A stretch of 64,000 nucleotides of DNA from an uncultured Alphaproteobacteria bacterium (GCA_944393215.1 CALXZL010000003.1:87238-151237), one strand, 5' to 3'; positions 144 through 19,840 are shown, numbered from the stretch's first letter. A program made the numbers and translations. The notes: generated by a model from the letters alone, not told the origin.

Positions 144-1544
144 CTACCTTTCTCGCATACTTTCGTTAAGATATTTCATTACCGGAGAGAGGAGATATTC
201 TATCACGCGGCGTTTGCCGGTTTTAATTTCGGCTGTTACGCTCATGCCGGGCTTGAGTTGGATTATTTGCCCATCAGCTTTGATTTTATTATCCAAGAGT
301 GTTAGTCGGGCATTAAACACTAAGCCAAGTTTTTCATCTTGAATGGCATCACCAGATATATTACGGACTTTTCCTTTGATTGTGCCATATTTTGTAAACG
401 GAAAACTGTCTATTTTGATTTCCACATCTTGTTTGGCGCGTACAAAACCGATGTCTTTGTTCAAAATCTGAACTTCCGCCTCCAATTTATAATCTTCCGG
501 TACTATATTCATAATTGGCTTGGCGGTTTCTACTACACCGCCTTTGGTATGATAAACCAACTGCTGAACATAACCCGATAGCGGGGCTTTGACGATAGTT
601 CGCTTTAAGGCTTCTTGATATTTAATCAGTTCTTGCTGATAAGAAGCCAACTTTTCACGGCTTTCGGTCAGCTCTTGCATGATATTCTTATCAAACTCAG
701 CCAAATATTGGCGTTGTTCTTTTTTCAAAGATTCAATATTGGCTTCGGTTTCTGCCATTTTCTTGGCTTGAACATTACGTTGTTCTTGTAAATTGGTTAA
801 TTCTTCTTCCTGTTCCAAAAAAGTCAAACGAGCTAAGAGCTTCTTCTCGACCAAAATTCTCTTTTTATCAATACGTTCTTCAACGCTGGGCAATAATTTT
901 TCAATACGTTGCAAATCGGCTTGAATAGTCTCCTTTTCTTTTTCGGCTTTAATAATTTGCCCTTCTAAAACCTCAATCTTTGCGGCTTTTTCGGTCATTT
1001 GACTTTGAAGAAGTTTACTGTGCATTCTGATTAAATATTCATCAATGTCATGATTATATGTAAAATTAGCTTCGGGATTATCGGTTAAGAGAGCTTTCAA
1101 GCGAGCAATAGAAATTTCTAAGGCTTCCATTTCGTTTTCAACACGATTGATATTTGCCAAGACTTCGGTTTGATTAAACTTAATCAGGTTTTGTCCTTCT
1201 TTGACATATTGCCCTTCCTGAACGTAGATTTCTTCAATTTCACTATCGGTCAAGGTCTGAATAGTTTTAATATTGGATGCCGGCATCAGTTTTCCGCCTG
1301 CAGTTGCGATAATGTCGATTTTGCCTAAGATTGACCATAAAATCAGAGTGGCAAACATTAACATAATAACGTATGTAAGCACTCTGGCGGCGTGAGATGG
1401 TGGCATTTCGGTAACTTCCAATACAGCCGGCAGAAACTCTTTTTCATGCTCGTTCATGCCCTTTACCTTACTATCTTTGGCGGCTTTTTCCTGTAACAAG
1501 GCTAGTTTGGCTATTTCCCAATATCTTTTCAGTTCTTCCCACAT
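144..1544 (-). CDS. hlyD: Type I secretion periplasmic adaptor (membrane fusion protein), HlyD family
   Basis: 466 aa with an N-terminal TM anchor and a long coiled-coil region. The C-terminal beta-barrel motif (..LKPGMSVTAEIKTGKRRVIEYLLSPV) is typical of HlyD/RtxD adaptors. It sits directly downstream of the hlyB-like ABC gene on the same strand. Confidence 0.85.
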   Translation of the reverse strand: MWEELKRYWEIAKLALLQEKAAKDSKVKGMNEHEKEFLPAVLEVTEMPPSHAARVLTYVIMLMFATLILWSILGKIDIIATAGGKLMPASNIKTIQTLTDSEIEEIYVQEGQYVKEGQNLIKFNQTEVLANINRVENEMEALEISIARLKALLTDNPEANFTYNHDIDEYLIRMHSKLLQSQMTEKAAKIEVLEGQIIKAEKEKETIQADLQRIEKLLPSVEERIDKKRILVEKKLLARLTFLEQEEELTNLQEQRNVQAKKMAETEANIESLKKEQRQYLAEFDKNIMQELTESREKLASYQQELIKYQEALKRTIVKAPLSGYVQQLVYHTKGGVVETAKPIMNIVPEDYKLEAEVQILNKDIGFVRAKQDVEIKIDSFPFTKYGTIKGKVRNISGDAIQDEKLGLVFNARLTLLDNKIKADGQIIQLKPGMSVTAEIKTGKRRVIEYLLSPVMKYLNESMRER

Positions 1545-1549
1545 TCTTT

Positions 1550-3715
1550 TTACTCCGCGGCCATTTGGGTTGGTATAATTGGTGCTGTTTGGCTATTCCA
1601 CAAATAAGCATAGCGTCCGCCTCGTTGAATAAGCTCTTCGTGTGTTCCGGTTTCCGTAATTTCGCCTTTTTCAATGGTGATAATCTGGTCGCAATCCCGA
1701 ACGGTGGACAAGCGGTGAGCAATCATAAACACCGTACGACCTTTACAAATTGAGGCCATATTCTGCTGAATAATACGTTCGGATTCATAGTCTAAAGCCG
1801 AAGTTGCCTCGTCAAAAATCAAAATTCGTGGATTATTAACCAAAGCTCGGGCAATGGCTATTCTTTGTCTTTGTCCTCCGGAAAGTGACGCTCCTCGCTC
1901 TTCAATAATGGTATCATAGCCGTTGGGAAGTTCGGTAATAAAATCATGAGCTCCGGCTAATTTGGCGGCGGCGATAATCTTGTCCATAGAAATTGCCGGA
2001 TTGGTTAGGGCAATATTCTCTCGCACACTCTTATTAAATAAGTAGTTCTCCTGTAAGACCACACCGATTTGTCGTCTTAACCATGCTGTATCAACGGTAG
2101 AAATATCAATTCCGTCAATCAGCACTTTGCCGGTTTCTGGAATATAAAGGCGTTGAATGAGTTTGGTTACGGTCGATTTACCCGAACCGCTCGGACCGAC
2201 AAAACCAATCTTTTGTCCGGCTTTGACTTTGAAATTCATTTTTTTAAGAATTTCCGGACCATTCGGTACATAGCGGAATGTAATATCCTTAAACTCCACA
2301 TCACCTTTAATTTCGGGCATAGAGCCTTTGGACAGGGTTTCGGTATTTTCGGCCGGATTGTTAAGAATATCGGAAAGTTTTTCGATAGAGATTTTGGCTT
2401 GTTGAAAATTTTGCCACAACTGAGCCAAACGTAAAATCGGTTGAGTTACGCGGCTGGAAAGCATATTAAAGGCAATCAGTTGCCCCACTGAAAGCTCGCC
2501 TTTCATCACCAAACTGGCTCCAATCCACAAAGTCAGAGCCATGGTGATTTTCTGTACTAACTGGACAAGCTGTCCGGCAATATTATTAATATGTGAGGCT
2601 CTGAAAGATGAGCCGACATAAGCGGCGAGTTGTTGTTCCCAACGGCGTTGCATTTGCGGTTCAACGGCTAATGATTTTACGGTTTCAACACCTGAAACAG
2701 CTTCAACCAAAAAGCATTGATTTTCAGCACCGCGTTGAAAACGCTCATCTATACGTGAACGTAGAATCGGGGTGAAGAACAAGGACAATACCACATAAAA
2801 AGGGATTGAGAGCAAAACCAGCAGTGTCAGAGTTTTGGAATAAAAGAACATGACAGTAAAAAAGATAATCGTAAAGAAGAAGTCGATAATCAGGGTTAAG
2901 GTCGAGCCAGTCAAAAAGTTGCGGATATTTTCCAGCTCATGAACTCGAGCCACCGTGTCGCCAACCCGACGGACTCCAAAATAAGATAAAGGCAGCCGAA
3001 TGAGATGCTTGAATAAGCTAGCACCAAGCTCCACATCCACGCGAGTGGTGGTATGTGAAAAAGTATATGTTCTAAGTCCGCCGAGCAAAGTTTCAAAGAT
3101 ACCAATACAGATTAGCGCCACCATTAATACGTCAAGACTTGAAAGCCCGCGGTTGACTAAAACCTTGTCAATCACCACTTGGAATAAAAGTGGCGATACC
3201 AGCGCAAACAGTTGTAAAAAGAAAGAGGCCAGAATAACCTCACCAAACAGCTTGCGGTATTTAACCACCGCCGGAATAAACCATGAAATGTCAAACTTGC
3301 GGTTTTTGCCGTTGATAAACTCACGGCAGGTCATCATTAAGAGCCTGCCGTTCCATCTATCTAAAAATTCTTCTTTGTTCAAAACCTCGGGGTGGTTACC
3401 TTTGGCGGGGTCTTGAATCAAAACTTTATCTTCTGCAACTTTGCCGATAATAAAATAAGTATTGTCTTTGCTTTGTGCGATTGCCGGCAGAGCGGTCTTG
3501 TCCAAGCGTTCCCATTTGGTGTCAACGAATCTGGCTTTGAAAGAAAATTCCTTTGCCAGTTGCAATAGCTCATATTCTTCAAAATGGGAATTTTGCCGGT
3601 CATATTTATGTTTGATTTGGTCAATAGAAATCGGCTTTTCAAAATAATTCGCCATAATGGCAAAACAAGCCAAGCCGGTATCAAGAGTTTGAGAATAGGT
3701 ATTTGTGGCTTCCAT
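1550..3715 (-). CDS. hlyB: Type I secretion ABC transporter, fused permease/ATPase with an N-terminal C39-like domain (HlyB family)
   Basis: 721 aa. Walker A is GPSGSGKST and the ABC signature is LSGGQRQRIAIARAL. A six-TM exporter domain sits in the middle. The N-terminal ~130 aa resemble a C39 peptidase-like domain that keeps the Cys (GLACFAIM) but lacks the usual His (NTYFII), so it is CLD-like. Confidence 0.9.
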   Translation of the reverse strand: MEATNTYSQTLDTGLACFAIMANYFEKPISIDQIKHKYDRQNSHFEEYELLQLAKEFSFKARFVDTKWERLDKTALPAIAQSKDNTYFIIGKVAEDKVLIQDPAKGNHPEVLNKEEFLDRWNGRLLMMTCREFINGKNRKFDISWFIPAVVKYRKLFGEVILASFFLQLFALVSPLLFQVVIDKVLVNRGLSSLDVLMVALICIGIFETLLGGLRTYTFSHTTTRVDVELGASLFKHLIRLPLSYFGVRRVGDTVARVHELENIRNFLTGSTLTLIIDFFFTIIFFTVMFFYSKTLTLLVLLSIPFYVVLSLFFTPILRSRIDERFQRGAENQCFLVEAVSGVETVKSLAVEPQMQRRWEQQLAAYVGSSFRASHINNIAGQLVQLVQKITMALTLWIGASLVMKGELSVGQLIAFNMLSSRVTQPILRLAQLWQNFQQAKISIEKLSDILNNPAENTETLSKGSMPEIKGDVEFKDITFRYVPNGPEILKKMNFKVKAGQKIGFVGPSGSGKSTVTKLIQRLYIPETGKVLIDGIDISTVDTAWLRRQIGVVLQENYLFNKSVRENIALTNPAISMDKIIAAAKLAGAHDFITELPNGYDTIIEERGASLSGGQRQRIAIARALVNNPRILIFDEATSALDYESERIIQQNMASICKGRTVFMIAHRLSTVRDCDQIITIEKGEITETGTHEELIQRGGRYAYLWNSQTAPIIPTQMAAE

Positions 3716-4235
3716 ATATATTATCCGCTTTTATAGGTTGCAAAACTCTAACAGACAACATCATAGAGGGAGAAAATTTAAAAGAAAAGTAAAATTTTTC
3801 TCTTAAGGTGCGAAAAAATTAAAATAAAGTAAACAATGAACTTATACACAGGGTTGTATTCTTAGAAATTCCACAAGTTTTTGTTAAGTAAAACATAACA
3901 CGTTATATTTACTCAAAAAAAATAAAATTTGTGCTTGCAATTTAAAATTATTGCTAGAAAATGATAAACAAGTTCACGCAACTAAGGAGAGGTTTATGAG
4001 AGACCATTATTTGGTGCCGCCCCAAACCTATCTCAATTTTTTGAGATTCTTACCATCTTGCCTACTTTTAGATGTTTCCTTGTTCTCGCCTAAAATAAAT
4101 TTTCCTCTCTCTTTGTTCTTTTATCCAATTTTTACGTTTTGTTATCTGCTTTTAAGTTACGCATTTTTCTCAATGCGGGAAAATGTTTTTTCGTGGAGGA
4201 AAATGAAAATAATAAAATTTATTAATAATAACTTT

Positions 4236-4442
4236 AATGCGTTCTTTCATCTGGAGAAAAAGCCGCTTAGTTTATTAAAATTTAAGCAAAGTGAATTTTA
4301 ATAAGTTAAGAAGGCGATATTGAAAAGTAAAAAGTAAGAAATAAATATTTTAAGGTAAAATTTTTTAGGGAGTTAAAATGAGAAAAATTATTAGTTTTTT
4401 GTTTTTATTGATGGGATTTTTGCTTAATGTAGGGGTAAGTTA
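4236..4442 (+). repeat. Copy A of a ~200-bp repeated cassette (3' scar of the RTX-module ORF, AT-rich promoter/5'UTR, RBS and first ~20 codons of an ankyrin lipoprotein gene)
   Basis: Almost identical to 18838-19045 and partly to 6269-6371 (aatgcgttctttcatctggagaa[a/c]aagccgcttagtttattaaaatttaag...gggagttaaaatgagaaaaattattagttttttg...). Confidence 0.8.
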
Positions 4443-5292
4443 TGCTCAAAATACCTCTTCTCAGATTAGCGATGAACAAGCTCATGAGATTGTGTTGAAA
4501 GGGACTCCGGATGATGTCAAAAAACTTATTCAAAGTGGTTATGATGTGAATAAGGTTTATCAGTGCAATACACTTTTAAATGTTGCGGTTAAAAGTGCTG
4601 TATACAGTCGAAATGCTAATAAACATCCAACATATGCATTGGAAAAAATTAAACTGTTAACAAAAGCAGGGGCAAATATAAATAAAGTTTCTTGTATTGG
4701 AATATCAATGCCTGCATTGCATTGGGCTGTTGCTTTGCCATCTCTTATTCCAGATATGGAGCGAGATGTAAATATTGCAATTGATGAAAAAATAAAAAAT
4801 AAAATCGGAGAATGTAATTTTCCAGGAATTGTTTCTAAACCGTGCGGAGAAATTACTTCTGAAGAAAGAGAGGAAATCAGAATAGCTATAAAAGGAGCAA
4901 TGCAGCTAGCATATCGTAAATTTATTCCATATTTTATGGAAATTATAGATTTTCTTGTTAAAAGCGGTGCTGATATTAATTTGAAAGCAGGAACTTTCGA
5001 AACTTCTCCTTTGCATCTTGCGGCTGCAAATCCTCAGGAAATAACATTGGAACCTTTGAAATATCTGATTCAAAAAGGAGCTGATATCAATATTCAAGAT
5101 AGTGATGGAAATACAGCATTATTTTGGGCTTATAGTGTAGAAAATGATAGAATTGTAAATGAACTTATAAAAGCTGGAGCTGATGAAAATATTAAGAATG
5201 CTGAAGGGGCATTTTATTATGATGTAAAATCTGTAAAGCAAAGAATTCTTTTAGACCAACGAGGAGATATTGAAATAGAAACTTATGAATAA
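4378..5292 (+). CDS. Secreted ankyrin-repeat protein (Sec signal peptide, cleavage after VSYAQ)
   Basis: 304 aa. The N-terminal signal peptide is MRKIISFLFLLMGFLLNVGVSYAQ. Several ankyrin-like repeats are present (..GADINIQDSDGNTALFWA.., ..KAGADENIKNAEG..). The RBS is gggag, 7 nt upstream of the ATG. Confidence 0.8.
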   Translation: MRKIISFLFLLMGFLLNVGVSYAQNTSSQISDEQAHEIVLKGTPDDVKKLIQSGYDVNKVYQCNTLLNVAVKSAVYSRNANKHPTYALEKIKLLTKAGANINKVSCIGISMPALHWAVALPSLIPDMERDVNIAIDEKIKNKIGECNFPGIVSKPCGEITSEEREEIRIAIKGAMQLAYRKFIPYFMEIIDFLVKSGADINLKAGTFETSPLHLAAANPQEITLEPLKYLIQKGADINIQDSDGNTALFWAYSVENDRIVNELIKAGADENIKNAEGAFYYDVKSVKQRILLDQRGDIEIETYE

Positions 5293-5332
5293 AAATCATT
5301 AATTTTATTAACTTTTTATTAGGAGAAATTTT

Positions 5333-6283
5333 ATGAGCTATTTAAATGCCAATGAATTAAAAAATGCTTTAACTCCAATTTTGCAATCTTATGGGTTAAA
5401 TGATATTGTAATTAATCAGTTGCTTTCTGATGAATTTATTAATGGAGCCTTTGAATTAACTCAAAATGAACCAGAAAACGATGATTTTATGAGTTTTGTA
5501 AGAAATTTTTCGGAAGAACAAACTTTATATTCAATCATAGAAGCTCAAGATAAAATTGTAACAGAATTATGTCAAGAAGGATATTTTACAAGCATTTTAC
5601 AATATGTAATTGATGCTTGGAGAGATATTGATTTTTCTAATAGTACTATAATGCAAATAAGTAGTATTGAAGATAATGATAGTTCTTCTAAATTTGAGGC
5701 TATATTTGATACTGTTTTAGAAATTGCAGAATTTGTACCGGCATTGAAAGCACCGGCTAAAGAATTAAAAATATATAAACATATTGCTGTCGGAGTATAT
5801 GAACAAGATAAAAAATTTTATGATATTGCTGATCGTTTTAGTCAAGAATTGTGGGCAATAGCAACAGGCGCAAGAGGAGCTTTTACCACGGCACATAAAC
5901 AAGCTTCGCCATTGGCACTTGATTTGGATGGAGATGGGGTTGAAACAACAACAGTAGAGTCAGGTGTCTATTTTGATCATGATGATAATGGTTTTGCCGA
6001 AAAATCAGGTTGGGTCGGCAAAGATGACGGTTTGTTGGTTCGTGATATTAATAATAATGGACTGATTGATGATGGAACGGAGTTGTTTGGTAATAACTCC
6101 GTTCTTTCGTCCGGGGAAAAAGCCGCTAATGGGTTTGAGGCTTTAGCTGATTTGGATAGTAATAGTGACGGTGTTTTTAATAGCTCTGATACGGCATGGA
6201 ATCAGGTTAAAGTTTGGAAAGATGCCAATCAAAACGGCGAAGTTGATAGCGGTGAACTTTTGACTTTAGAACAAGCCGCTTAG
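5333..6283 (+). CDS. Orphan RTX-family N-terminal paralog: unique ~190-aa N-domain fused to the EF-hand-like Ca-binding module shared with the giant RTX protein, ending at a recombination scar
   Basis: C-terminal 127 aa (SPLALDLDGDGVETTTVESG...GELLTLEQAA*) are >85% identical to residues ~190-318 of the 7192-14355 protein. The stop codon lies inside the repeated cassette (copy B). The RBS is aggag. Confidence 0.65.
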   Translation: MSYLNANELKNALTPILQSYGLNDIVINQLLSDEFINGAFELTQNEPENDDFMSFVRNFSEEQTLYSIIEAQDKIVTELCQEGYFTSILQYVIDAWRDIDFSNSTIMQISSIEDNDSSSKFEAIFDTVLEIAEFVPALKAPAKELKIYKHIAVGVYEQDKKFYDIADRFSQELWAIATGARGAFTTAHKQASPLALDLDGDGVETTTVESGVYFDHDDNGFAEKSGWVGKDDGLLVRDINNNGLIDDGTELFGNNSVLSSGEKAANGFEALADLDSNSDGVFNSSDTAWNQVKVWKDANQNGEVDSGELLTLEQAA

Positions 6284-6371
6284 TTTATTAAAATTTAAGC
6301 AAAGTGGATTTTAATAAGTTAAGAAGGCGATATTGAAAAATAAAAAATGAGAAATAAATATTTTCAGGTAA
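6269..6371 (+). repeat. Copy B (partial, ~100 bp) of the repeated cassette
   Basis: gaacaagccgcttagtttattaaaatttaagcaaagtggattttaataagttaagaaggcgatattgaaaaataaaaaatgagaaataaatatttt matches copies A and C, then diverges. Confidence 0.8.
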
Positions 6372-6392
6372 TTGTATAAAAGAGGACGGAAA

Positions 6393-7199
6393 ATGTTTTT
6401 TAAGAACTACGATGTTTATGAAAACAAATTAAGTGAACAATTAAGCGATGATAATCCATATAAGAAAAAATTGATAGAGATGGAAACGCCATCTGAAAAG
6501 CATCCTATATACACAATACTGGTGTGGAGTTTACTTATTTATTGTTGGATGTTTTTTATTGCAATGTTTTATAAGCAAATTAATCAATCTTATTTATATA
6601 ATTTAAAATTAGTTATATCTTCTGCAAATATTATATTTGTGACTTTAGCTATATGTTTGTGTTACAAAAAAAATTATCTCATCGGAACAAATTCAATATA
6701 TCGCCGCAATTCATATATTATATTTGTACTATCCGTTATATTTTCCGTTTTAATAGAAACGGCAGATTCTGGAAATATCACCCGAACAGAACTTGTTGAG
6801 ACATTTTTTTTCTTTTATGTGATAAATTCTAAATCGTATATTGCTTTGGCTATTGTTGCTTTTATTGCGTTAGGAATAGCATCTAGTTATTATACGTGTC
6901 CATATGAACTTTATCGAGGATTTTATTCTGTAAATAAAATCTACAATGTATGTTCCTCTGAAAAAAAATTATTAGACAAATGGTTTTTAATATGCGCAAT
7001 AGGTTTTTTTATATACTTGCCATTAATTTATATGGCATTCACACCAGCAAAAGATGATTTTAATTCCAAAATAAAACTTTTATCTGTTGCAGGCCTGTTT
7101 GCCATAATTCCTTTTAATACAACAATTTATATAGGAAGAAAATATTATAAATGTTTTGCAAAGGCATACAAACAAGAAAGGAGATATACAGATGATTGA
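6393..7199 (+). CDS. Polytopic inner-membrane protein of unknown function, translationally coupled to the downstream RTX gene
   Basis: ~268 aa with at least 6 hydrophobic helices. The RBS is agaggacgg before the ATG at 6393. Its stop TGA overlaps the RTX start as ATGATTGA at 7192-7199. Confidence 0.55.
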   Translation: MFFKNYDVYENKLSEQLSDDNPYKKKLIEMETPSEKHPIYTILVWSLLIYCWMFFIAMFYKQINQSYLYNLKLVISSANIIFVTLAICLCYKKNYLIGTNSIYRRNSYIIFVLSVIFSVLIETADSGNITRTELVETFFFFYVINSKSYIALAIVAFIALGIASSYYTCPYELYRGFYSVNKIYNVCSSEKKLLDKWFLICAIGFFIYLPLIYMAFTPAKDDFNSKIKLLSVAGLFAIIPFNTTIYIGRKYYKCFAKAYKQERRYTDD

Positions 7200-10100
7200 A
7201 ATTTCACAAGAAGACAAAAATACAATAGATAATTTTTTTGAAACCTTAAAGAATATGGCTATAACAGGAGGTGAGGTTACATTAAGTAAAATCGGAGATT
7301 GCGTTTCTAAAATGCCTATAGGCGACTTAAAAAATATGGGAAGATTGGTAAAAACATATGGTTATTATGGAGCATTTTTTGCTATTCAACAATCTATAGA
7401 AGAACACAATTTAGGTCCCATTGGTAAATATGCTTTAGCAACAGGAATAGCAATATTATTGATACCTGCGGGGGCTACTATTACATCAGCTGCAATCGCA
7501 ACATTTGTTATTGGCAGTTTAGTTGGATTGTCATGGGATTATATTGAAAAACATAAAGATGATATTTTTAATGAATTAAAATCTATTTTAACTGCGGTAG
7601 GTGTAGAAATGGAAGAAAATACTATTTCTGTAAATTGTTGCACTTTATCTCAATATAATAGACAATATACAAAATATGAACCTATGTGCATGATTCAAGA
7701 ATCTCTTTTCACAGCGGAAACGACGCGTTCACCATTAGTCATAGATTTAGATGGAGATGGAGTTGAAACCACGACAGTGGAAAAAGGAACACATTTTGAT
7801 CACGATGGCAATGGTTTTGCGGAAAGAAGTGGTTGGGTAGGCAAAGATGATGGTTTGTTGGTAAGAGATATTAACGGAAATGGACAGATAGATAATGGAA
7901 CGGAGTTGTTTGGTAATAACTCCGTTCTTTCGTCTGGGCAAAAAGCCGCCAATGGGTTTGAAGCCTTAGCTGAGTTAGATAGTAACAGTGATGGTGTTTT
8001 TAATGGTTCTGATACGGCATGGAACCAAGTTAAAGTTTGGAAAGATACGAATCAAAACGGCAAAGTTGATGAAGGAGAGCTGTTAACTTTGGAACAAGCC
8101 GGAATTGAAAATATTAATTTAGATTATCAAAATTCAAACGCAACAGATATTAACGGTAATACTATCGGTCAGATAGGGTCTTTTGACAAAGAAAACGGAG
8201 CTCAAGGAAACATTAACGATATTTGGTTTAATGCCGATTTAATGGATACTGTAGATAAAACAGAGGTTGATATCCCCGCTGATATTGCCGCTTTGCCTAA
8301 TGTTCAAGGTTTTGGCAATGTGCATGATTTGCATACGGCAATGGCTTTGGATACGACAGGAGAACTCAAAGCCTTAGTGCAACAATATGCCGCAGAAACA
8401 AATTCTGAAGCTCGTCAACAAATTTTGTATAACATTATATATCATTGGACCGGTGTTCAAGATATGCCGATTGACGGTCGTGACCCAACACAAGTTTATG
8501 GTAAGGTTATTGATGATACACGCAAACTTGAAGCGTTAGAAGAATTTATGGGCAAAGAATATCTCGGTACATGGTGTTGGGGAGAACGAGACCCAAATCC
8601 GCACGGCAAGGCTGCTCCTTATATCTTGCGTGCTTTTGATATTTTGGCAGAATATGTTAATAGTGAACTATTATCTCAAACACACTATAAACCATTGTTG
8701 GAGAAAGTGCAATTAACATGGAATAATTCTACAGAAACATGGAATGTGGATGTTTCTGAAGCTGTGGCGCAAATTCAAGGCATTTATAATGAAAATGCAG
8801 AAAATGGAATCGTAGCATTTAGAGAATTTGAAGCATTAATAAAAAATTGCGGATATAATAACTTACAATCTATTTATGATGCTTTTAGAAACTATGGTTC
8901 TCTGACGGGTAATGATTTAGATGTTATGCTCGCAAAATTTGGTTATACTTATGGAACAGAAAGCAATGATAATTTGACCGGAACGTCTGGTGTGGATGAA
9001 ATTAATGGATTGGCCGGTAATGATACTATTTATGGCGATGCCGGTAATGATACCCTAGACGGTGGCGCCGGAAATGATAATATTTTTGGTGAAGATGGAA
9101 ATGATATCCTTATCGGAGGCGAAGGAAATGATTATCTCATTGGAGGAAATGGCGCCGATACTTATATTTTTAACCCCGGTTTTGGCAATGATGCCATTGA
9201 TAATTCTGATGATAATGCTTCTGCAAATGAGCCGGATATTATCCAATTTGGTGAAGGTATTTTAGCATCAAAAACAACTCTCGGTCGCCAAGGTTTTGAC
9301 TTGATTATTACTGTTTCATATGATCCGGATGAAGAGGGCAATACACGGCCGAACGATTCAATTCGTATTTATAGCTATTTTGACCAACAAGGTACATCAA
9401 GCGCAACGGTTAATTCTATTGTGTTTGCAGATGGCACAACTTGGGATTATGAATATGTTCTTGGCCACTGGAATAGCATCCCCGGTGTGAACGGCGGAGA
9501 AACTTTAGAAGGAAATAATGAAGATAATACTATAAACGGAACATCTTATAATGATATTTTAATTGGTAACGGTGGAAATGACGTTATTAATGCCGGAAAC
9601 GGAAATGATCGTTTGCTTGGCGGAACCGGAAATGACACATTAAACGGTGGTTTAGGTGATGATGCTTATCTATGGAATTGGGGCGATGGAATGGATACCA
9701 TCTATGATACCGGAAATCATGATAAAATTTCTTTCGGTGAAGGTATTTCATTCAATGATTTGAAATTCCGTCAAGAAGGCAGCCATTTGCGAATTACGGT
9801 TAAAAATAATGAATCTCAAGGAATATTAATTAATAACTTTTTCTCCGGTTTAGATTATAAAATTGAAGATTTGTATTTTCACGATGGTTCTATTACTCAT
9901 CTATCAGAAATTCCTCTGATTTTGCATCAGTTAGAAACTGGTGAAAACATAAATCTTACAAATAATGGAGATACTGTATTTGCTAATGGTGGAAATGACA
10001 CGATTAATGGTGGGCAAAATAGAGACATTATTTATGCTGGTGCCGGTTTTGATACAGTTAATGCTGGTGCAGGTAATGATCTTATTATTGGTGGTACAGG

Positions 10101-13100
10101 TAATGATCGTTTAGAAGGCGGAGCCGGAGATGATACTTATATCTATAATCTGGGTGATGGTCTTGATACCATTTATGACACAGATGGAACGGATAAAATT
10201 AAATTTGGGGAAGGAATTACTTTTGATGATTTAAGATTTTCTCGTAAAGGAGATAATCTGGTGATTACATTGTTTAATGACATTACTCAAGGTATTGTTA
10301 TTGAAAGTCAGTTTTACAATAGTAGTTACAGCATAGAACAGCTTGAGTTTGCCGATGGTACTGTAAAAAATCTGAGTGAAATGGGTTTTACCTTTCAACA
10401 AACAAACGGACATGATAATGTTTCCGGAACATCGTATGATGATATTATTTACGGTAATGGAGGCAATGATACTATAAACGGCGGAAATGGAAACGACACC
10501 ATAATTGGCGGCAAAGGTAATGACACCTTATATGGTAGTGATGGCGACGATACCTATGTATGGAATCTCGGGGATGGCTTTGATGTTGTCAGCGATAGTG
10601 ATGGAAACAATACAATCCAGTTTGGCGAAGGTATCAGCTTAGAGAATTTGACCTTTGAACGTCAAAATGGTGACGGTTCGGATTTGTATGTTTTTGTAAA
10701 CGGTGACCGTAATCAAGGCATTAATCTTTCTGGTTTCTTTGACTCTTCATCTCGGAGAAATTATACTTTCAAGTTTGCCGATGGTTCAACCTTTATACCC
10801 AAAGAAAATAGTTTTAACTTTATCTTACCGGAAAGTTCGAGCAATTTGGATGGATTTAGTTATGATGATGTTTTAACCGGAAATAATCAAAATAATGAAA
10901 TATCAGGCGGAAATGGTAATGATACCATAACTGGCGGCAAAGGTAATGACACCTTATATGGTAATGATGGCGACGATACCTATGTATGGAATCTCGGTGA
11001 TGGCTTTGATGTTGTCAGCGATAGTGATGGAAACAATACAATCCAGTTTGGCGAAGGTACCAGCTTAGAGAATTTGACCTTTGAACGTCAAAACGGCGAC
11101 GGTTCGGATTTGTATGTTTTTGTAAACGGTGACCGTAATCAAGGCATTAATCTTTCTGGTTTCTTTGACTCTTCATCTCGGAGAAATTATACTTTCAAGT
11201 TTGCCGATGGTTCAACCTTTGTACCCAAAGAAAGTGGCTTTAACTTTAGTTTGCCGGAAGGTCAGAGTAATTTGAACGGATTTAGTTATGATGATGTTTT
11301 AACCGGAAATAATCAAAATAATGAAATATCGGGCGGAAATGGTAATGATACCATAACTGGCGGCAAAGGTAATGACACCTTATATGGTAGTGATGGCGAC
11401 GATACCTATGTATGGAATCTTGGGGATGGCTTTGATGTTGTCAGCGATAGTGATGGAAACAATACAATCCAGTTTGGCGAAGGTATCAGCTTAGAGAATT
11501 TGACCTTTGAACGTCAAAATGGTGACGGTTCGGATTTGTATGTTTTTGTAAACGGTGACCGTAATCAAGGCATTAATCTTTCTGGTTTCTTTGGCTCTTC
11601 ATCTCGGAGAAATTATACTTTCAAGTTTGCCGATGGTTCAACCTTTGTACCAACGGAAGATATCTCATTGTCGCAATTACCGGAAGTTAATCAAACAATT
11701 AATGGTACGGCAGATGATGATATTTTAACCGGTGGTGATGGTCATGACATCATCAATGTCGGTGATGGTTATAACGATATCACTGGTGGCAAAGGTAATG
11801 ATACAATTACTGGCGGATATGACCGAGATACCTATTATTACAATCTTGGTGACGGATTTGATACAATTACTGATCCGAATGGTAAAGACCAGATTGTTTT
11901 TGGAGAAGGAATAGCCAAAGACGCTTTGACTTTCAGGAGAAGCGGTAATGATTTGTGGCTGATTATCAATGATGATACATCCCAAGGCATGAAGATTGTC
12001 AATTTCTTTGCTTCTGATGATAACAAAATTGAAACACTCAAATTTGCAGATAACAGTTCAATGAATATTGCCACATCTGGTCTCACATTAAAACAATGGG
12101 AGACAGATGATAATATAAGCGGAACTCCATATGATGATGTTATCTACGGCAATGATGGGCTGGATACATTATCCGGCGGCAGTGGCAAAGATACACTGAT
12201 TGGCGGACATGGTAATGATACGCTCAAAGGCGGTGCCGGTAATGATACTTATCGCTGGGATTCTGGTGATGGCTTTGACACTATTGAAGATAATTCAGGT
12301 CAAAACACCGTTGAATTTGGAGAAGGCATAGATTTTAATGATTTAACTTTTACAAAAATTGGTGAGAATCTTTATATAACAGTTAGTGATAATCCTGCTG
12401 AAGGTTTTAACTTGTCAAAATTTTTCAACAATGACAGTTATAAAAACTTTACCCTGAAATTTAAAGATGGAACCCAATATATCTTAAATGAAAATGGTCT
12501 TGTTTTCAGACAAGGAGATACTTTTGATACAATTAACGGAACCAACTTTAATGATATTATTTATGCCAATGACGGCAACGATACCGTTAATGCCTTAGCC
12601 GGTAATGACATTATTTACGGTGGCAAAGGCAACGATGTTATTGATGCCGGAAATGGTAATGATGTTATTTATGGCAGTGAAGGTAACGATACATTAACTG
12701 GTGGAGTTGGTGATGATACCTATATTTATAATCTCGGCGATGGATTTGATACAATCTCGGATGCTGACGGAATTGACAAAATTGTTCTTGGAAGTGGAAT
12801 TACGGCGGATATGCTATCCTTTAGCCGTGAGGGTAATGATTTGCGTATTATTATCAATAATGACAAATTGCAAGGCTTTTTGCTCAAAAATCAGTTTGCT
12901 TCGGGTACCTCAAAAATCGAAAGTATTGAGTTTGCTGATGAAAGTATATTAAGCCTGATTAACAAGGGATTTACATTTAATCAGAACAATATTGATGAGA
13001 CAATTACTGGTACAGCCTATGATGACGTTATCAATGCTCTGGGAGGCAATGATATTATCAATGCTGGAGAAGGTGATGATATTATTACCGGAGGATTGGG

Positions 13101-14355
13101 CAATGATAATCTGAACGGTGGTAATGGAGATGACACTTATATATATAATATGGGTGATGGCTTTGATACCATTATGGAAACATCTGGGGCGGATAAGATT
13201 GTTCTAGGTAATGGAATTTCTAAAGAGAATCTGAGGTTTATTCGTGAAGGTAATAATTTACGTATTTTGATAAATAATGATATAGCTCAAGGTTTTCTGC
13301 TGGTCGATCAATTCAAGAATGCTGATACACGCTTCGAGCAACTCCAGTTTGCCGATAATTCGGTATTAGATTTAGTTAATGATTCTCTGATTTTTGAACA
13401 ATATGATGGCGATGAAACTATAAACGGCACTGATAATGATGATACAATTTACGGAATGAAAGGTAATGATACAATTAATTCCGGAGATGGTGATGATGTG
13501 ATTATCGGTGGTGTTGGTAATGATATTCTTAATGGAGGCTACGGCAGAGATACATATATTTACAATCTGGGTGATGGTATTGATACCATTACGGAAACTC
13601 GAGGAAACGATAAAATCAAATTTGGCGAAGGAATTTCTCAGAGTGATTTAACATATATGCAAGATGGAAAAGATTTACGTATTGTTATTAAAAATGATAC
13701 TAATCAAAACATTTTGATTAAAGATTTTTATAATAATGTTAATAATCAAGTTGAAACACTACAATTCTCAGATGGTTCAACGTTTAATCTCTCTACACAG
13801 GGATTAACGTTGCAACAGACAAATGCTGATGATACAGTTAATGGAACCAACTATAATGATATCATCTACGGAAACGGTGGTCACGATACTATTAACGCCG
13901 GTGAAGGTAATGACACACTGATTGGAGGTATCGGTAATGATATACTAAACGGTGGTAATGGAGATGATATTTATCAATATAATCTAGGAGATGGTTTTGA
14001 TACAATATCGGATAGCAGTGGTAATGATAAAATTGTTTTTGGTGAAGGTATCAGTCAAAACGATTTGTCGTTTGAACAAATTGGTAACAATCTGAAAATC
14101 TCTATCAATGGTGATGAAATTAAAGGTCTTCAAATAAATAACCACTTTAGTTCGAGTACAAATCAGGTTGAAAGTATCGAATTTGCTGATGGTAGCACGC
14201 TTAATATTAGCAATGCCGACCAGCTGATACAGGCGATGAACAGTTTCAGTGTCAGCAATTCAGCTTCGACAGATACTTTATCTAATCCGACTGAAGATGT
14301 CAGCGATATGTATTCTCTGGCGGCCAATCAGGATTTAACCAGAAAAGCAATTTAA
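7192..14355 (+). CDS. Giant RTX-family protein (T1SS substrate) with a hydrophobic-hairpin N-domain, an EF-hand-like module, ~13 RTX/beta-roll repeat modules, and a C-terminal secretion signal
   Basis: ~2387 aa. Dozens of GGxGNDxLxG nonapeptide repeats are present. The C-terminus is acidic and Ser/Thr-rich (..SNPTEDVSDMYSLAANQDLTRKAI). An N-terminal 35-residue hydrophobic segment (YALATGIAILLIPAGATITSAAIATFVIGSLVGLSW) is present. An AAGGAG RBS sits 8 nt upstream of the ATG at 7192. The gene is adjacent to and divergent from hlyBD. Confidence 0.9.
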   Translation: MIEISQEDKNTIDNFFETLKNMAITGGEVTLSKIGDCVSKMPIGDLKNMGRLVKTYGYYGAFFAIQQSIEEHNLGPIGKYALATGIAILLIPAGATITSAAIATFVIGSLVGLSWDYIEKHKDDIFNELKSILTAVGVEMEENTISVNCCTLSQYNRQYTKYEPMCMIQESLFTAETTRSPLVIDLDGDGVETTTVEKGTHFDHDGNGFAERSGWVGKDDGLLVRDINGNGQIDNGTELFGNNSVLSSGQKAANGFEALAELDSNSDGVFNGSDTAWNQVKVWKDTNQNGKVDEGELLTLEQAGIENINLDYQNSNATDINGNTIGQIGSFDKENGAQGNINDIWFNADLMDTVDKTEVDIPADIAALPNVQGFGNVHDLHTAMALDTTGELKALVQQYAAETNSEARQQILYNIIYHWTGVQDMPIDGRDPTQVYGKVIDDTRKLEALEEFMGKEYLGTWCWGERDPNPHGKAAPYILRAFDILAEYVNSELLSQTHYKPLLEKVQLTWNNSTETWNVDVSEAVAQIQGIYNENAENGIVAFREFEALIKNCGYNNLQSIYDAFRNYGSLTGNDLDVMLAKFGYTYGTESNDNLTGTSGVDEINGLAGNDTIYGDAGNDTLDGGAGNDNIFGEDGNDILIGGEGNDYLIGGNGADTYIFNPGFGNDAIDNSDDNASANEPDIIQFGEGILASKTTLGRQGFDLIITVSYDPDEEGNTRPNDSIRIYSYFDQQGTSSATVNSIVFADGTTWDYEYVLGHWNSIPGVNGGETLEGNNEDNTINGTSYNDILIGNGGNDVINAGNGNDRLLGGTGNDTLNGGLGDDAYLWNWGDGMDTIYDTGNHDKISFGEGISFNDLKFRQEGSHLRITVKNNESQGILINNFFSGLDYKIEDLYFHDGSITHLSEIPLILHQLETGENINLTNNGDTVFANGGNDTINGGQNRDIIYAGAGFDTVNAGAGNDLIIGGTGNDRLEGGAGDDTYIYNLGDGLDTIYDTDGTDKIKFGEGITFDDLRFSRKGDNLVITLFNDITQGIVIESQFYNSSYSIEQLEFADGTVKNLSEMGFTFQQTNGHDNVSGTSYDDIIYGNGGNDTINGGNGNDTIIGGKGNDTLYGSDGDDTYVWNLGDGFDVVSDSDGNNTIQFGEGISLENLTFERQNGDGSDLYVFVNGDRNQGINLSGFFDSSSRRNYTFKFADGSTFIPKENSFNFILPESSSNLDGFSYDDVLTGNNQNNEISGGNGNDTITGGKGNDTLYGNDGDDTYVWNLGDGFDVVSDSDGNNTIQFGEGTSLENLTFERQNGDGSDLYVFVNGDRNQGINLSGFFDSSSRRNYTFKFADGSTFVPKESGFNFSLPEGQSNLNGFSYDDVLTGNNQNNEISGGNGNDTITGGKGNDTLYGSDGDDTYVWNLGDGFDVVSDSDGNNTIQFGEGISLENLTFERQNGDGSDLYVFVNGDRNQGINLSGFFGSSSRRNYTFKFADGSTFVPTEDISLSQLPEVNQTINGTADDDILTGGDGHDIINVGDGYNDITGGKGNDTITGGYDRDTYYYNLGDGFDTITDPNGKDQIVFGEGIAKDALTFRRSGNDLWLIINDDTSQGMKIVNFFASDDNKIETLKFADNSSMNIATSGLTLKQWETDDNISGTPYDDVIYGNDGLDTLSGGSGKDTLIGGHGNDTLKGGAGNDTYRWDSGDGFDTIEDNSGQNTVEFGEGIDFNDLTFTKIGENLYITVSDNPAEGFNLSKFFNNDSYKNFTLKFKDGTQYILNENGLVFRQGDTFDTINGTNFNDIIYANDGNDTVNALAGNDIIYGGKGNDVIDAGNGNDVIYGSEGNDTLTGGVGDDTYIYNLGDGFDTISDADGIDKIVLGSGITADMLSFSREGNDLRIIINNDKLQGFLLKNQFASGTSKIESIEFADESILSLINKGFTFNQNNIDETITGTAYDDVINALGGNDIINAGEGDDIITGGLGNDNLNGGNGDDTYIYNMGDGFDTIMETSGADKIVLGNGISKENLRFIREGNNLRILINNDIAQGFLLVDQFKNADTRFEQLQFADNSVLDLVNDSLIFEQYDGDETINGTDNDDTIYGMKGNDTINSGDGDDVIIGGVGNDILNGGYGRDTYIYNLGDGIDTITETRGNDKIKFGEGISQSDLTYMQDGKDLRIVIKNDTNQNILIKDFYNNVNNQVETLQFSDGSTFNLSTQGLTLQQTNADDTVNGTNYNDIIYGNGGHDTINAGEGNDTLIGGIGNDILNGGNGDDIYQYNLGDGFDTISDSSGNDKIVFGEGISQNDLSFEQIGNNLKISINGDEIKGLQINNHFSSSTNQVESIEFADGSTLNISNADQLIQAMNSFSVSNSASTDTLSNPTEDVSDMYSLAANQDLTRKAI
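10417..11700 (+). repeat. Three near-identical tandem 426-bp (142-aa) repeats inside the RTX gene
   Basis: The unit containing ggcggcaaaggtaatgacaccttatatggt recurs at 10507, 10933 and 11359, and the protein segments (GNGNDTI.GGKGNDTLYG.DGDDTYVWNLGDGFDVVSDSDGNNTIQFGEG.SLENLTFERQNGDGSDLYVFVNGDRNQGINLSGFF.SSSRRNYTFKFADGSTF) are almost identical. Confidence 0.85.
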
Positions 14356-14375
14356 AGGAGGTATTAAATGACAAA

Positions 14376-14411
14376 AATCCCCCTACTCTTTAGAGCAGGG
14401 GGATTTTTTGT
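14376..14411. terminator. Bidirectional intrinsic terminator between the convergent RTX and DUF1273 genes
   Basis: Hairpin aatccccctactctttagagcagggggatt followed by TTTTTTG on the plus strand. It overlaps the last codons of the minus-strand gene. Confidence 0.6.
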
Positions 14412-14853
14412 AATATTTAGATAAATTTATAATATTCTTCTTTAATCTTTTTGTATATTGAAAAGCATCATAAGCTCCGCCATATTCTCTATTAATATAA
14501 GCAATAACAAAATCAGTATTTTTAGCCATATAGCGATTTCGGGTAGAAATAGCGAATTTATAAGGGGCAGATTCAACTTCCGGCGGATAATCAAAGGAAT
14601 CAAAGGGAAATACTTTGTCATATTGATGTAATTGTCTGGGATATGCGATTATTAATATTATGGAAATATGAGGAAAATCTTTTTGTAGTTTATTAAGAAC
14701 TTTTGTCGCCAAAGAATCAAAATTTCCGTAACCGCCAATCCAAAATGTATCAACATTTTCTTCGGTTATTAATTTTCTGACTTGTTTTTCTATTGAGCTT
14801 TCAAGAGCTAAAGGAGCATCTCTATGCCCAAAGAACGCGCATATCTTACCCAT
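14383..14853 (-). CDS. DUF1273 / YpsA-like (SLOG-fold) protein
   Basis: 156 aa. The pattern FFGHRD...WIGGYGNFDSLA...ILIIAYP...VIAYINREYGGAY resembles the YpsA/DUF1273 family. This is an inference from motif memory. Confidence 0.5.
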   Translation of the reverse strand: MGKICAFFGHRDAPLALESSIEKQVRKLITEENVDTFWIGGYGNFDSLATKVLNKLQKDFPHISIILIIAYPRQLHQYDKVFPFDSFDYPPEVESAPYKFAISTRNRYMAKNTDFVIAYINREYGGAYDAFQYTKRLKKNIINLSKYYKKSPCSKE

Positions 14854-14859
14854 GCAATT

Positions 14860-15130
14860 CTCGAACTTAAAACGACCACCTTTTGCACAAAGGTGGTCGG
14901 GGTAGTTCGTAAATCATACAGCAAGTGATGACCTTTTGACCTTTAGGTATATTACCTTGAACATACGCCAAAAGCTCCCCGACCATAATCGGGGATATAT
15001 TTATTGCCACAATAAGACAATATTACGGTGTTATATCCAAAACGCCGCTTGCTGTATAAGAGCTTACGAATGCTCCGCACCTAAGTGCTAAACAGCATTA
15101 TTTATGCTGTCTGCCCTTGAATATAAAATA
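14860..15130. other. GC-rich, hairpin-dense ~270-bp noncoding element between the phage spanin genes and the DUF1273 gene; candidate structured RNA leader or prophage end/cos remnant
   Basis: ~45% GC against a ~35% background. Strong hairpins: gaccacctttgtgcaaaaggtggtc, ccccgaccataatcgggg and cagcattatttatgctg. On the minus strand the first hairpin is followed by GTTTTAAGTT immediately upstream of the DUF1273 start. Confidence 0.35.
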
Positions 15131-15155
15131 ACTTTATTAAATTTCAACTAAAAAA

Positions 15156-15407
15156 TTAAAGGCATAATTCATCATAAACCACATTGTTGCGGTCGATTTG
15201 GTTAATGGTTTCCGGTGTATCATTGAGATAATCTGGGTACACTGGTTCATAAATAAGGCAAAAATCACCGCTTATATTTGTTGTGCAAGCGGTTAATGCG
15301 CTCGCTATCAGACAAGCTATCGCGAGCTTTTTTAGCAATTTTATGGGCATTGTTTTCTCCTTCCAACTGTTCTTTTTCTGCGGTTTCTTTGGCTTGTCGA
15401 TAGCCAA
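15156..15407 (-). CDS. Phage o-spanin-like lipoprotein (Rz1-like), overlapping the i-spanin gene out of frame
   Basis: 83 aa with signal peptide and lipobox (..ASALTAC TTN). It lies inside or overlaps 15265-15474 in another frame, as lambda Rz/Rz1 do. Confidence 0.5.
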   Translation of the reverse strand: MAIDKPKKPQKKNSWKEKTMPIKLLKKLAIACLIASALTACTTNISGDFCLIYEPVYPDYLNDTPETINQIDRNNVVYDELCL

Positions 15408-16651: not shown

Positions 16652-16721
16652 TATTTTAACCTTTTAAAACAAAAACAGCAGGATTTTTATTTCCTGCCGT
16701 TTGATATAAATTAAATGTTTG

Positions 16722-18837: not shown

Positions 18838-19045
18838 AATGCGTTCTTTCATCTGGAGAACAAGCCGCTTAGTTTATTAAAATTTAAGAAAAGTGAATTT
18901 TAATAAGTTAAGAAGGCGATATTGAAAAATAAAAAATGAGAAATAAATATTTTAAGGTAAAATTTTTTAGGGAGTTAAAATGAGAAAAATTATTAGTTTT
19001 TTGTTTTTATTGATGGGATTTTTGCTTAATGTAGAAGTTAGCTAT
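18838..19045 (+). repeat. Copy C of the repeated promoter/5'UTR/signal-peptide cassette
   Basis: Near-identical to 4236-4442, including the RBS and the first ~20 codons (MRKIISFLFLLMGFLLNV). Confidence 0.8.
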
Positions 19046-19840
19046 GCCCAAAGCACGACCTCTCAAATCAGTGATGAGGAAATTAAGAATATTTTATTAA
19101 ATGGAACACCAGAAGATTTGAAAAATCTTTTGAATAAAAAAATTGATGTAAACATTGATTATAACTGTTCGACTTTGCTTAATTTAGCAATTCGTAGTCT
19201 TGTTGCAAATCAAAGTCCAACGGCAACCTCTGAAGATGCTTTAGAAAAAGTGAATATGCTTATCAAGGCTGGTGCTGATGTAAATTTAAATACTTGTGGA
19301 TTAACGCCTTTAGCGACATTAGTTGGGTTGCCGCATATGGCAAGACAGATGGTAAATGTATATGTAAACACAATCATGGCAAATATGGATTATTCTACAG
19401 ATATTTGTCATGTAAATGGCAGAGCAAAAGTATGTAAGGATACAACAACTGCAGAAAGAGCTCAGATGAAAGCTGAGATTATTCAAATATTTAAAGAAGA
19501 AATTCAAAAAAATGAACCCTATTATACTCAAATTGCCGATATATTGTTACAACATGGAGCTGATATTAATAAAAAATCTAATGGCATCGCACCTTTGCAT
19601 TTTGCAGCAAATGTTCCTCATGGTGAAAATCCAATATTTTTAAAATATCTTTTGGCAAAGGGTGCAGATGTAAATATTCGTGATTTTCAAGGAAGCACAC
19701 CGTTATTTGTTGCCAATTTTGCAGATAATAAAGAAGTAATAGATTTATTAATCCAAAATGGAGCAGATGTTAATATCCGTAATAATAAAGGAGTTTTATA
19801 TAAAGATTTTAAAACAGGAGAATATTATAACTTTGATTAG
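18980..19840 (+). CDS. Secreted ankyrin-repeat protein (second paralog, same signal peptide)
   Basis: 286 aa. The signal peptide is identical to that of the 4378 ORF. Ankyrin repeats are present (..GADVNIRDFQGSTPLFVA.., ..NGADVNIRNNKG..). Confidence 0.8.
   Translation: MRKIISFLFLLMGFLLNVEVSYAQSTTSQISDEEIKNILLNGTPEDLKNLLNKKIDVNIDYNCSTLLNLAIRSLVANQSPTATSEDALEKVNMLIKAGADVNLNTCGLTPLATLVGLPHMARQMVNVYVNTIMANMDYSTDICHVNGRAKVCKDTTTAERAQMKAEIIQIFKEEIQKNEPYYTQIADILLQHGADINKKSNGIAPLHFAANVPHGENPIFLKYLLAKGADVNIRDFQGSTPLFVANFADNKEVIDLLIQNGADVNIRNNKGVLYKDFKTGEYYNFD

Follow-up and report, generated by a model that had tools for sequence, protein, structure and literature searches.

To our knowledge, the polymorphic toxin systems that are central to bacterial competition, those of contact-dependent inhibition (CDI), Rhs, Maf and the type VI and type VII secretion systems (T6SS, T7SS), all vary the C-terminal tip of the toxin. 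The subject of this analysis is a locus in 64,000 nucleotides of DNA from an uncultured Alphaproteobacteria bacterium (GCA_944393215.1, CALXZL010000003.1:87238-151237; this entire stretch is referred to as the window), in which a giant RTX gene and an orphan open reading frame (ORF; 5333-6283) upstream of it share an FrpC-type self-processing module (SPM) behind different N-terminal domains (called heads in what follows). Comparison with related loci supports viewing this system as an inverted-polarity variant of the polymorphic toxin systems, built on a known domain.

Among described systems, frpDC/frpA of Neisseria meningitidis has the same layout: an upstream gene for a secreted partner, followed by a variable N-terminal domain, an SPM, a linker and RTX repeats, with export by an HlyBD-type type I secretion system (T1SS). 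FrpA and FrpC have a shared body and unrelated N-termini, which a review attributes to foreign DNA at the 5' end of the gene (PMC3034196). N-terminal polymorphism on an SPM-RTX scaffold is thus already on record, and has been read there as adhesion or immune variation. The SPM of FrpC is folded by Ca2+ after passage through the T1SS, and the Asp414-Pro415 bond on the module's N-terminal border breaks by way of an aspartic anhydride that can cross-link to lysine; three ligands, D414 and D478 among them, have been proposed for a transient fifth Ca2+ by which the scissile amide is twisted (PMC7078468). Cleavage is abolished in FrpC D414A (PMC7846742). The window differs in having Ser-Pro in place of Asp-Pro and Asn in place of D478, and the system to which it belongs differs in its arrays of truncated orphan heads, in partners that are often polytopic membrane proteins, and in the occurrence of lysozyme and lipase heads.

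The resemblance to CdiA-CT/CdiI, Rhs-CT and MafB-CT lies in a conserved scaffold with a hypervariable toxin end and a linked, co-varying immunity gene, in displaced orphan modules with a conserved recombining junction, and in immunity-rich islands; ankyrin-repeat immunity proteins (Imm-Ank) are also known in polymorphic toxin systems (PMC3482391). In contrast to CDI, Rhs and Maf, the variable end in the window is N-terminal (because T1SS signals are C-terminal), the putative immunity gene and the orphans both lie upstream of the main gene, and the conserved junction is the SPM rather than a motif of the VENN or PxxxxDPxGL type. The classical polymorphic-toxin arrangement, a C-terminal variable end with the immunity gene downstream, is therefore not what is found here; this is an inverted variant. 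T1SS and RTX are absent from the trafficking modes catalogued in the survey of polymorphic toxins (PMC3482391), and toxin domains fused N-terminal to RTX repeats receive a passing mention only in a 2025 paper (PMC12419801). A literature search of incomplete coverage found no orphan head cassettes, no upstream immunity genes on an SPM scaffold and no N-terminal polymorphic toxins of the T1SS/RTX type.

Two further groups of T1SS-exported proteins bear comparison. The MARTX proteins of Vibrio are likewise large RTX proteins, in which recombination reshuffles the effectors and an internal autoprocessing domain sets them free (PMC3034196), but their effectors are internal, released by an InsP6 (inositol hexakisphosphate)-activated cysteine protease and aimed at eukaryotic targets, without immunity genes or orphan arrays. 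(Neither the MARTX cysteine protease domain nor the MARTX N-terminal A and B repeats gave a Pfam match in residues 1-669 of the window's giant protein.) RTX bacteriocins such as RzcA of Rhizobium, and CdzC/D of Caulobacter, are exported by T1SS and aimed at other bacteria, and the glycine-zipper membrane-active Cdz proteins with their membrane immunity protein resemble the giant protein's head (head B) and its six-transmembrane partner (PMC3034196, PMC5380434). No SPM, head polymorphism or orphan cassettes have been described for RzcA or CdzC/D.

The array in the window consists of two units of a composite cassette, each made up of an SPM remnant with its junction, a partner gene, a head and an SPM, and only the last unit continues into an exportable body. 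The region is probably the 5' part of a T1SS-exported polymorphic RTX effector locus, with tandem cassettes standing beside divergent hlyBD genes; the toxin-immunity relation and export are what we infer from the comparisons that follow.

The orphan ORF encodes 316 residues from an ATG that is preceded, 8 nucleotides upstream, by AGGAG. Its first 185 residues have no counterpart in the giant protein, and its residues 186-316 form an ungapped alignment with the latter's residues 174-304 (counted from the ATG at 7192; the preliminary description, which placed the segment at residues ~190-318, counted from a TTG at 7156) with 84% identity and E=6e-70. At the DNA level, 5888-6280 and 7711-8103 are 81% identical over 393 nucleotides, with a single 40-nucleotide exact run at 6072-6111. 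The module is the FrpC SPM: the ORF matches PDB 6SJW/6SJX (E=3e-36) over chain residues 1-124, ending ~55 residues short of the known domain end at ~179, and the giant protein matches 6SJW (E=2e-47) over residues 1-173 of 179; identity to the Neisseria SPM is ~55-60% over the aligned stretch, and the precomputed Pfam family of the homologues is PF26745 'SPM'. The loops DLDGDG, DHDGNG, DINGNGQID, DSNSDG and DTNQNG, together with W451 and W519, align with FrpC, and Ca2+ binding is predicted. Having no GGxGxD repeats, the orphan is not itself an RTX protein. It terminates in LEQAA-stop where the giant protein continues LEQAGIENI; homology ends inside GAACAAGCCG, and the second Ala codon and the stop come from a 115-nucleotide repeat that recurs upstream of both ankyrin genes (copies of 90% and 93% identity). 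The preliminary description had drawn the same outline, with a unique N-domain of ~190 residues, a shared module carrying five EF-hand-like loops and a stop embedded in recurrent sequence, and this holds up, the more exact division being 192 residues followed by 124. It had also treated a generic, widespread module as an argument against domain shuffling. Literally, widespread it is, with 17,172 matches at E<=1e-10 among 1.84 billion cluster representatives, but the idea of shuffling stands, with the SPM as the conserved recombination or junction segment.

That the heads are polymorphic at one locus is evident from related loci, of which some 150 (74 from genomes and 76 from metagenomes, mostly of human-gut Alphaproteobacteria) were retrieved with the module as query. 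The nearest belong to uncultured Alphaproteobacteria of the human and animal gut, one of them (L038) being 95-98% identical to parts of the window. Of the ORF's protein homologues, the 120 best are almost without exception short, with a variable N-domain and an SPM that stops at any of many points. When N-domains are clustered together with upstream genes, 26-27 head families are distinguished on one SPM-RTX scaffold. The orphan's own head family (A) occurs in 16 full-length RTX genes and 7 orphans, that of the giant protein (B) in 5 and 4, and a third (C) in 33 and 13. The window's hlyD gene is syntenic in ~30 related loci with 75-92% nucleotide identity, and beside these hlyBD genes 12 loci have C as the active head, 6 have A and 5 have B; in one locus (L028), with hlyBD 92% identical to the window's, head A is on the full-length gene. 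Orphan and active heads follow one another in the orders C-B, C-A, B-C and A-B, and in one locus C, N05 and A precede an active A. In most of the 19 loci with at least two SPM ORFs, a full-length gene comes after one or more orphans and shares their strand. Relatives are also found in Pseudomonas, Limnobacter, Janthinobacterium and other genera. This is direct evidence of head polymorphism at one locus, with each head occurring in an active and a stored state, and confidence in the cassette architecture and in head exchange is high. The earlier suggestion that N-terminal modules are shuffled on an RTX scaffold, as a mirror image of C-terminal toxin cassettes, gains support from both observations, and where it recommended looking for alternative heads in other strains, the related loci have heads of three types at the hlyBD-adjacent site.

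The gene directly upstream co-varies with the head, as tables of co-occurrence across the related loci bear out. In 14 of 15 loci, head A has upstream of it the gene for an ankyrin-repeat protein with a signal peptide, and in all 7 loci head B has that for a six-transmembrane protein of family U03 (with no Pfam or NCBIfam match); head C is preceded by polytopic membrane proteins of several families. By this comparison the neighbouring ankyrin and six-transmembrane genes, whose part in the cassettes the preliminary description missed, are head-specific members of them, and the partner of a cassette is taken to reside in either the periplasm or the membrane. Some heads elsewhere carry recognizable domains: Phage_lysozyme (30 bits; cut-off 22.3), and Lipase_3 with or without LysM. 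A protein with the LprI lysozyme-inhibitor domain (31.1 bits; curated cut-off 22) is encoded directly upstream of the Phage_lysozyme head, and this pairing is the strongest argument supporting partners as immunity proteins and heads as envelope-directed antibacterial toxins. Partner-rich islands with degraded heads occur in L038 (beside a tRNA-Thr region matching window positions 19850-29455) and L152. On these sequence relations, Ank1 and the six-transmembrane protein are probable immunity proteins, the heads are most likely envelope-targeting antibacterial toxins, and confidence in a toxin-immunity function overall is moderate.

The cassettes would then work as follows. HlyBD would export the giant protein C-terminus first, with Ca2+ folding its RTX blocks and SPM once they are outside the cell. 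Since only the last cassette (six-transmembrane partner and head B) is in frame with the RTX repeats and the C-terminal secretion signal, only that head would be exported; with its hydrophobic hairpin it may act on the envelope of competitors while the six-transmembrane protein protects the producer. The Ank1-head A unit would be a displaced orphan that retains immunity to the head-A toxins of neighbours and stores a spare head.

Several considerations weigh against this interpretation. Neither head A (whose predicted model gives generic helical-bundle matches only) nor head B (whose AlphaFold2 model, of low confidence with a pLDDT of 48, was not used and no fold search was made) matches a toxin family or any other known family, so that toxicity of the window's own heads is argued from context. 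The characterized relatives, FrpC with FrpD and ApxIVA, are discussed as host-adhesion factors and not as antibacterial toxins (PMC7078468, PMC5472700). With the scissile Asp replaced by Ser, and given the loss of cleavage in D414A, the known chemistry would not be expected to free the head. The 34 synonymous codon differences between the orphan SPM and that of the giant gene imply that any exchange between these two copies is old or rare. Killing, protection, export and processing are all predicted from sequence.

Adhesion is the alternative that fares best, although it is improbable. The exported RTX protein would fix its head to surfaces of the host or of bacteria in host-directed 'clip-and-link' adhesion of the FrpD-FrpC kind, with the partner serving as the anchor or receptor of the head and with head polymorphism arising from host immune or receptor variation. 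The operon logic in Neisseria is alike, in that FrpD, a secreted lipoprotein encoded upstream, has a Kd of ~0.2 nM for the FrpC N-domain and FrpA and FrpC place unrelated N-termini before their shared body (PMC5233953, PMC3034196, PMC5472700); the habitat is the human gut, and several partners have signal peptides or lipoboxes. However, many partners are polytopic inner-membrane proteins (4-8 transmembrane segments) that could not be used as surface anchors, the lysozyme head comes with an LprI partner and other heads are lipases, partner-only and orphan islands are typical of immunity stockpiling, and the Asp required for the 'link' chemistry is absent.

Less probable still is that the orphan ORF is the dead remnant of an old duplication or rearrangement, with the ankyrin gene as the only part under selection. 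It is cut inside its SPM and has neither RTX repeats nor a C-terminal secretion signal, relics of illegitimate recombination are found at junctions, and the heads of some relatives (L011, L038) are frameshifted or internally deleted. Yet the ORF is intact behind a good ribosome-binding site, most of ~60 orphan copies of head A retain the full-length head ORF, and the Ala-Ala-stop tails of orphans (below) are non-random. The closest copy, in L001, is 97.6% identical and likewise an orphan; relative to it, ank1 has a ratio of nonsynonymous to synonymous substitution rates (dN/dS) of 0.11, head A one of 0.13 and the SPM stub one of 0.08, on small counts (9 synonymous and 5 non-synonymous differences in the head; 10 and 3 in the stub). 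The orphan is under purifying selection. A simple recent tandem duplication, which the preliminary description had considered as a source of a pseudogene, is ruled out by the synonymous differences between the window's two SPM copies; these and a dN/dS of ~0.1 make the orphan neither a fresh duplicate nor a freely decaying pseudogene.

Orphans of the toxin-immunity system so preferred tend to end in a particular way. Ala-Ala is the C-terminus of 31 of the 120 closest proteins as compared with 6 of 175 control ORFs. When all truncated S-type ORFs are aligned to the giant protein and distinct junctions are kept, 91 junctions remain, of which 13 end in Ala-Ala, as against 0.7% for random in-frame joins to the same DNA (binomial p ~1e-13); another 15 end in Ala after some other residue, giving 28 of 91 for the two together against a null of 4.7%. 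An independent set that is more distant has Ala-Ala ends in 4 of 29. Most non-homologous tails have 0-4 residues (none, A, AA, IAA, LAA, MAA, YAA, KAA, IIAA). Codons at the Ala-Ala-stop vary: it is GCC GCT TAG in the window (6277-6283) and elsewhere GCC GCA TAA, GCG GCA TAA, GCA GCA TAA, GCA GCG TAA or GCG GCC TGA (for example at L004:8437-8445, L007:8097-8105, L006:4052-4060 and L024:7760-7768 and 8711-8719), and the DNA that follows differs between species. Ala-Ala-stop is found in 8 of 16 orphans with a cassette downstream and in 1 of 12 without (that one being a natural …KAA end of an RTX protein; Fisher p=0.04), that is, mainly where a cassette follows, and so acts like an element of the following cassette's 5' edge. 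When random pentapeptides were screened at the C-terminus of a toxin in E. coli, Ala-Ala was the ending of 91% of the 100 best detoxifying tags, with dependence on ClpXP (PMC10862746), by analogy with which a portable 'stop-and-degrade' edge at the 5' side of cassettes is plausible, at low confidence. The Ala-Ala ends may also be of purely mechanistic origin, through microhomology at Ala codons. A different origin of the Ala-Ala-stop orphans, by internal deletions that extend into the final codons of the RTX gene (…KAA/KAI), was provisionally rejected: the 3' flanks of orphans do not match those of full-length genes, and the non-homologous tails are I-, L-, M- or Y-AA and not K-AA, Limnobacter excepted. 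(The HlyB genes of L004 and L007 likewise end in …AA.) It is very improbable that the short head-plus-SPM proteins constitute a separate functional class (such as an intracellular or separately exported Ca2+ switch) with the Ala-Ala C-terminus as a recognition signal, since, for all that they form about half of single-SPM cluster representatives, are under purifying selection and have full-length relatives ending in a similar K-A-[I/V/A], they end at no fewer than 90 positions lying 44 to >250 residues after the Pro, most of which cut through the SPM fold and so speak against any defined domain layout, their tails are arbitrary in orphans that have no downstream cassette, and a secretion signal of two residues is not known.

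The second distinguishing feature is the residue that precedes the scissile-site Pro. Both SPM copies of the window have Ser-Pro (5906-5911 and 7729-7734) at the position of FrpC Asp414-Pro415, and neither has the scissile Asp-Pro. In the giant protein's SPM the equivalent of FrpC D478 is Asn while D579 is kept, so the D414/D478/D579 set of the transient fifth Ca2+ site is incomplete. Among all motif matches across the loci, the residue before Pro is Ser in 124, Asp in 9, Cys in 2 (including Cys-Pro in Limnobacter olei, L024) and Thr in 2; Thr-Pro occurs in L033 and L046. All 125 unique S-type pre-sites have Ser, and the motif F-x-T-A-E-x-x-x-S, directly followed by P, is common to unrelated heads. 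Ser is also present in 65 of 87 single-module proteins, a set of more diverse cluster representatives with the module N-proximal. The residue before Pro co-varies with the D478 position: Asp is paired with Asp in 7 of 8 cases, and Ser with Asn, Ser, Thr or Gly, neither Asp nor Glu, in 31 of 35. As far as its sequence goes, the module of the window is a Ca2+-folded SPM-like junction domain that falls outside the canonical Asp-Pro 'clip-and-link' type.

Autoprocessing by N-O and N-S acyl shift has Ser, Cys and Thr as its classic nucleophiles. Cleavage before Ser by such an N-to-O or N-to-S shift can be proposed, with low confidence, from this established chemistry. A literature search, again of incomplete coverage, found no description of a Ser-type SPM. 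The two distinguishing features can be combined in a single proposal, that a portable, ssrA-like Ala-Ala-stop degron, brought by each incoming cassette on its 5' edge, terminates the displaced head and silences such non-exportable toxins as proteins by way of ClpXP while their co-transcribed immunity genes stay on, and that the Ser/Cys/Thr-Pro SPM represents a distinct autoprocessing chemistry replacing the Asp anhydride in the majority of this very large family; taken jointly, this is doubtful. Towards the C-termini of giant proteins of 3,000-7,700 residues (P0121-P0257, for example P0123, P0139 and P0158) stand 2-4 SPM-like modules in tandem, in which the Pro is preceded by Pro, Ala, Ser or Thr, so the SPM fold also occurs as an apparently non-processing repeat domain.

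The homology that exchange of cassettes would require is present in the window. Direct 115-nucleotide repeats flank the ank1-head A unit on both sides (4244-4358 and 6257-6371). Relative to the copy at 6257-6371, those at 4244-4358 (90%) and 18846-18960 (93%) precede the ankyrin genes at 4378-5292 and 18980-19840. These junction repeats and the SPM-coding DNA, with its 40-nucleotide exact run, could serve for inserting, swapping or losing partner-plus-head units. A simple route would start from a fragment comprising SPM remnant, junction, partner, head and SPM, both arms of which recombine inside the resident SPM; the new unit would enter and the old head would be orphaned. Exchange at SPM and junction homology would leave the same heads active in some genomes and orphaned in others. 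Promoter-like matches in the 115-nucleotide repeat do not exceed shuffled expectation, and no terminator was found in it. As a cross-species element the repeat was rejected, since it is present in L038 only and the DNA following Ala-Ala-stop in other species is unrelated. The 35-nucleotide SPM remnant at the start of the array has as its counterpart in L038 an intact SPM running to GQKAA-stop, joined to the same repeat.

Individual proteins carry traces of such events. In P0061, residues ~370-429 are chimeric, with post-SPM sequence (…DTIAALPNI) running into that of a C-terminal ankyrin partner (QDSDGNTALFWA…); judged by its sequence, this protein is a relic of illegitimate recombination between cassettes. 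In the head A family, P0008, P0012 and P0017 are identical over ~170 residues and then differ in the last ~15 residues before Ser-Pro, which places breakpoints also in the conserved linker before the site, immediately upstream of the SPM.

The giant RTX protein has 2,387 residues, a Pfam HemolysinCabind assignment, 49 GxGxD motifs and the internal repeats D2 and D3. Head B includes, at residues ~78-115, a conserved hydrophobic stretch rich in Gly and Ala, which bears out the preliminary description of an N-domain distinct from the orphan's and containing a hydrophobic hairpin of ~35 residues; this head is also an orphan in other loci and is found in 11 short proteins. The components of a T1SS, an ABC exporter with a C39-like domain and a membrane-fusion protein, are encoded adjacently; the C39-like domain has no catalytic Cys (DTGLACF in the N-terminal sequence). 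Full-length relatives have a conserved C-terminal …(R/K)KA[I/V/A], seen in the window at 14338-14355 (…LTRKAI): 39 of 55 complete proteins end in …K-A-[I/V/A/S], the final residue being I, V or A in 37. The third paralog that had been assigned to the shuffling system (22922-24784) is indeed a remote relative with a transmembrane anchor, with a FrpC-like linker and one RTX block, but it stands outside that system: its identity to the giant protein is low (Table 1), its SPM-like region has no Ca2+ motifs (LVLDVLGDG) and yielded no SPM match when compared with PDB sequences, and the closest related locus, L038, lacks the paralog.

Table 1. Features of the cassette array and the neighbouring genes in the window
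Position	Strand	Feature	Evidence
144..1544	-	HlyD-family membrane-fusion protein, T1SS	Pfam HlyD_3 E=1e-18
1550..3715	-	HlyB-type ABC exporter with N-terminal C39-like domain	Pfam ABC_membrane, ABC_tran, Peptidase_C39
4236..4270	+	SPM-coding remnant (…VLSSGEKAA-stop), 5' edge of cassette 1	tblastn of ORF residues 256-265 at 4238-4267
4244..4358	+	Inter-cassette repeat copy 1 (junction and ank1 leader)	Repeat family D6, 90% to reference copy
4378..5292	+	Ank1, ankyrin-repeat protein with signal peptide, head-A partner	Pfam Ank families
5333..5908	+	Head A, orphan N-terminal domain, 192 residues, all-alpha, without known family	
5909..6283	+	Truncated SPM (residues 1-124 of ~179), ends Ala-Ala-stop	PDB 6SJW E=3e-36
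6257..6371	+	Inter-cassette repeat copy 2, starts within GAACAAGCCG followed by CTTAG	
6393..7199	+	Six-transmembrane membrane protein, head-B partner	Six hydrophobic segments; family U03
7192..7731	+	Head B, giant RTX N-terminal domain, hydrophobic Gly/Ala-rich hairpin	
7732..8270	+	Complete Ser-type SPM of giant protein	PDB 6SJW E=2e-47
8271..14355	+	FrpC-like linker, RTX blocks, C-terminal end …LTRKAI	Pfam HemolysinCabind
18838..19840	+	Repeat copy 3 and SPM remnant (…VLSSGEQAA-stop), then Ank2	Repeat families D5, D6; Pfam Ank
22922..24784	+	Remote degenerate paralog	27% identity to giant protein over 536 residues

Ank2 is a lone, headless partner gene; its product and Ank1 share 44% identity and have nearly the same signal peptide. 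At the homologous site, L038 has another array of orphans and partners. A tblastn search of 3700-4400, 14300-15700, 17600-19000 and 19800-22950 for hidden remnants of heads or partners gave none. In the vicinity of the array (3700-4400) there is no Fur box scoring at least 14/19, and the window as a whole has none above 15/19. Between the RTX gene and the Ank2 site, 15655-17612 holds an Abi_2 (abortive-infection-like) gene (16722-17612, minus strand) and small ORFs without Pfam matches. A tRNA-like fragment (19850-19934) follows directly 3' of Ank2, with an intact tRNA-Thr (22469-22544) 2.5 kb beyond it; the surroundings of this tRNA-Thr in L038 (6453-6802) carry other partner genes in their array, together with a head B that is degraded. 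The tRNA-Thr neighbourhood appears to be a second, strain-variable cassette site.

Further along the window, a tRNA-Met, a phage-type integrase gene (45537-47390) and a stretch of 25-29% G+C with SHOCT-domain repeats follow one another in 45433-52500, which looks like an integrated island. A type II CRISPR-Cas system occupies 57475-63529, with Cas1 at 57475-58389, Cas9 at 60017-63529 (minus strand) and between them an array (58444-59601) of ~17 repeats of 36 nucleotides (GTTATAGTTGACCGTCTAATTAATCTCTGATATGCT) with a period of 66.

What the locus adds to the biology of bacterial competition is the logic of polymorphic toxins with its polarity inverted and placed on a T1SS scaffold, in a form that is common in Alphaproteobacteria of the human gut. 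For meningococcal FrpD, FrpC and FrpA, which have long been puzzling, a new reading as an immunity-toxin pair becomes possible. The SPM, by now a tool of protein engineering (NeissLock), has mostly Ser and not the reactive Asp in the copies closest to those of the window, and the locus offers a natural, testable case of C-terminal Ala-Ala tails on stored toxin fragments.

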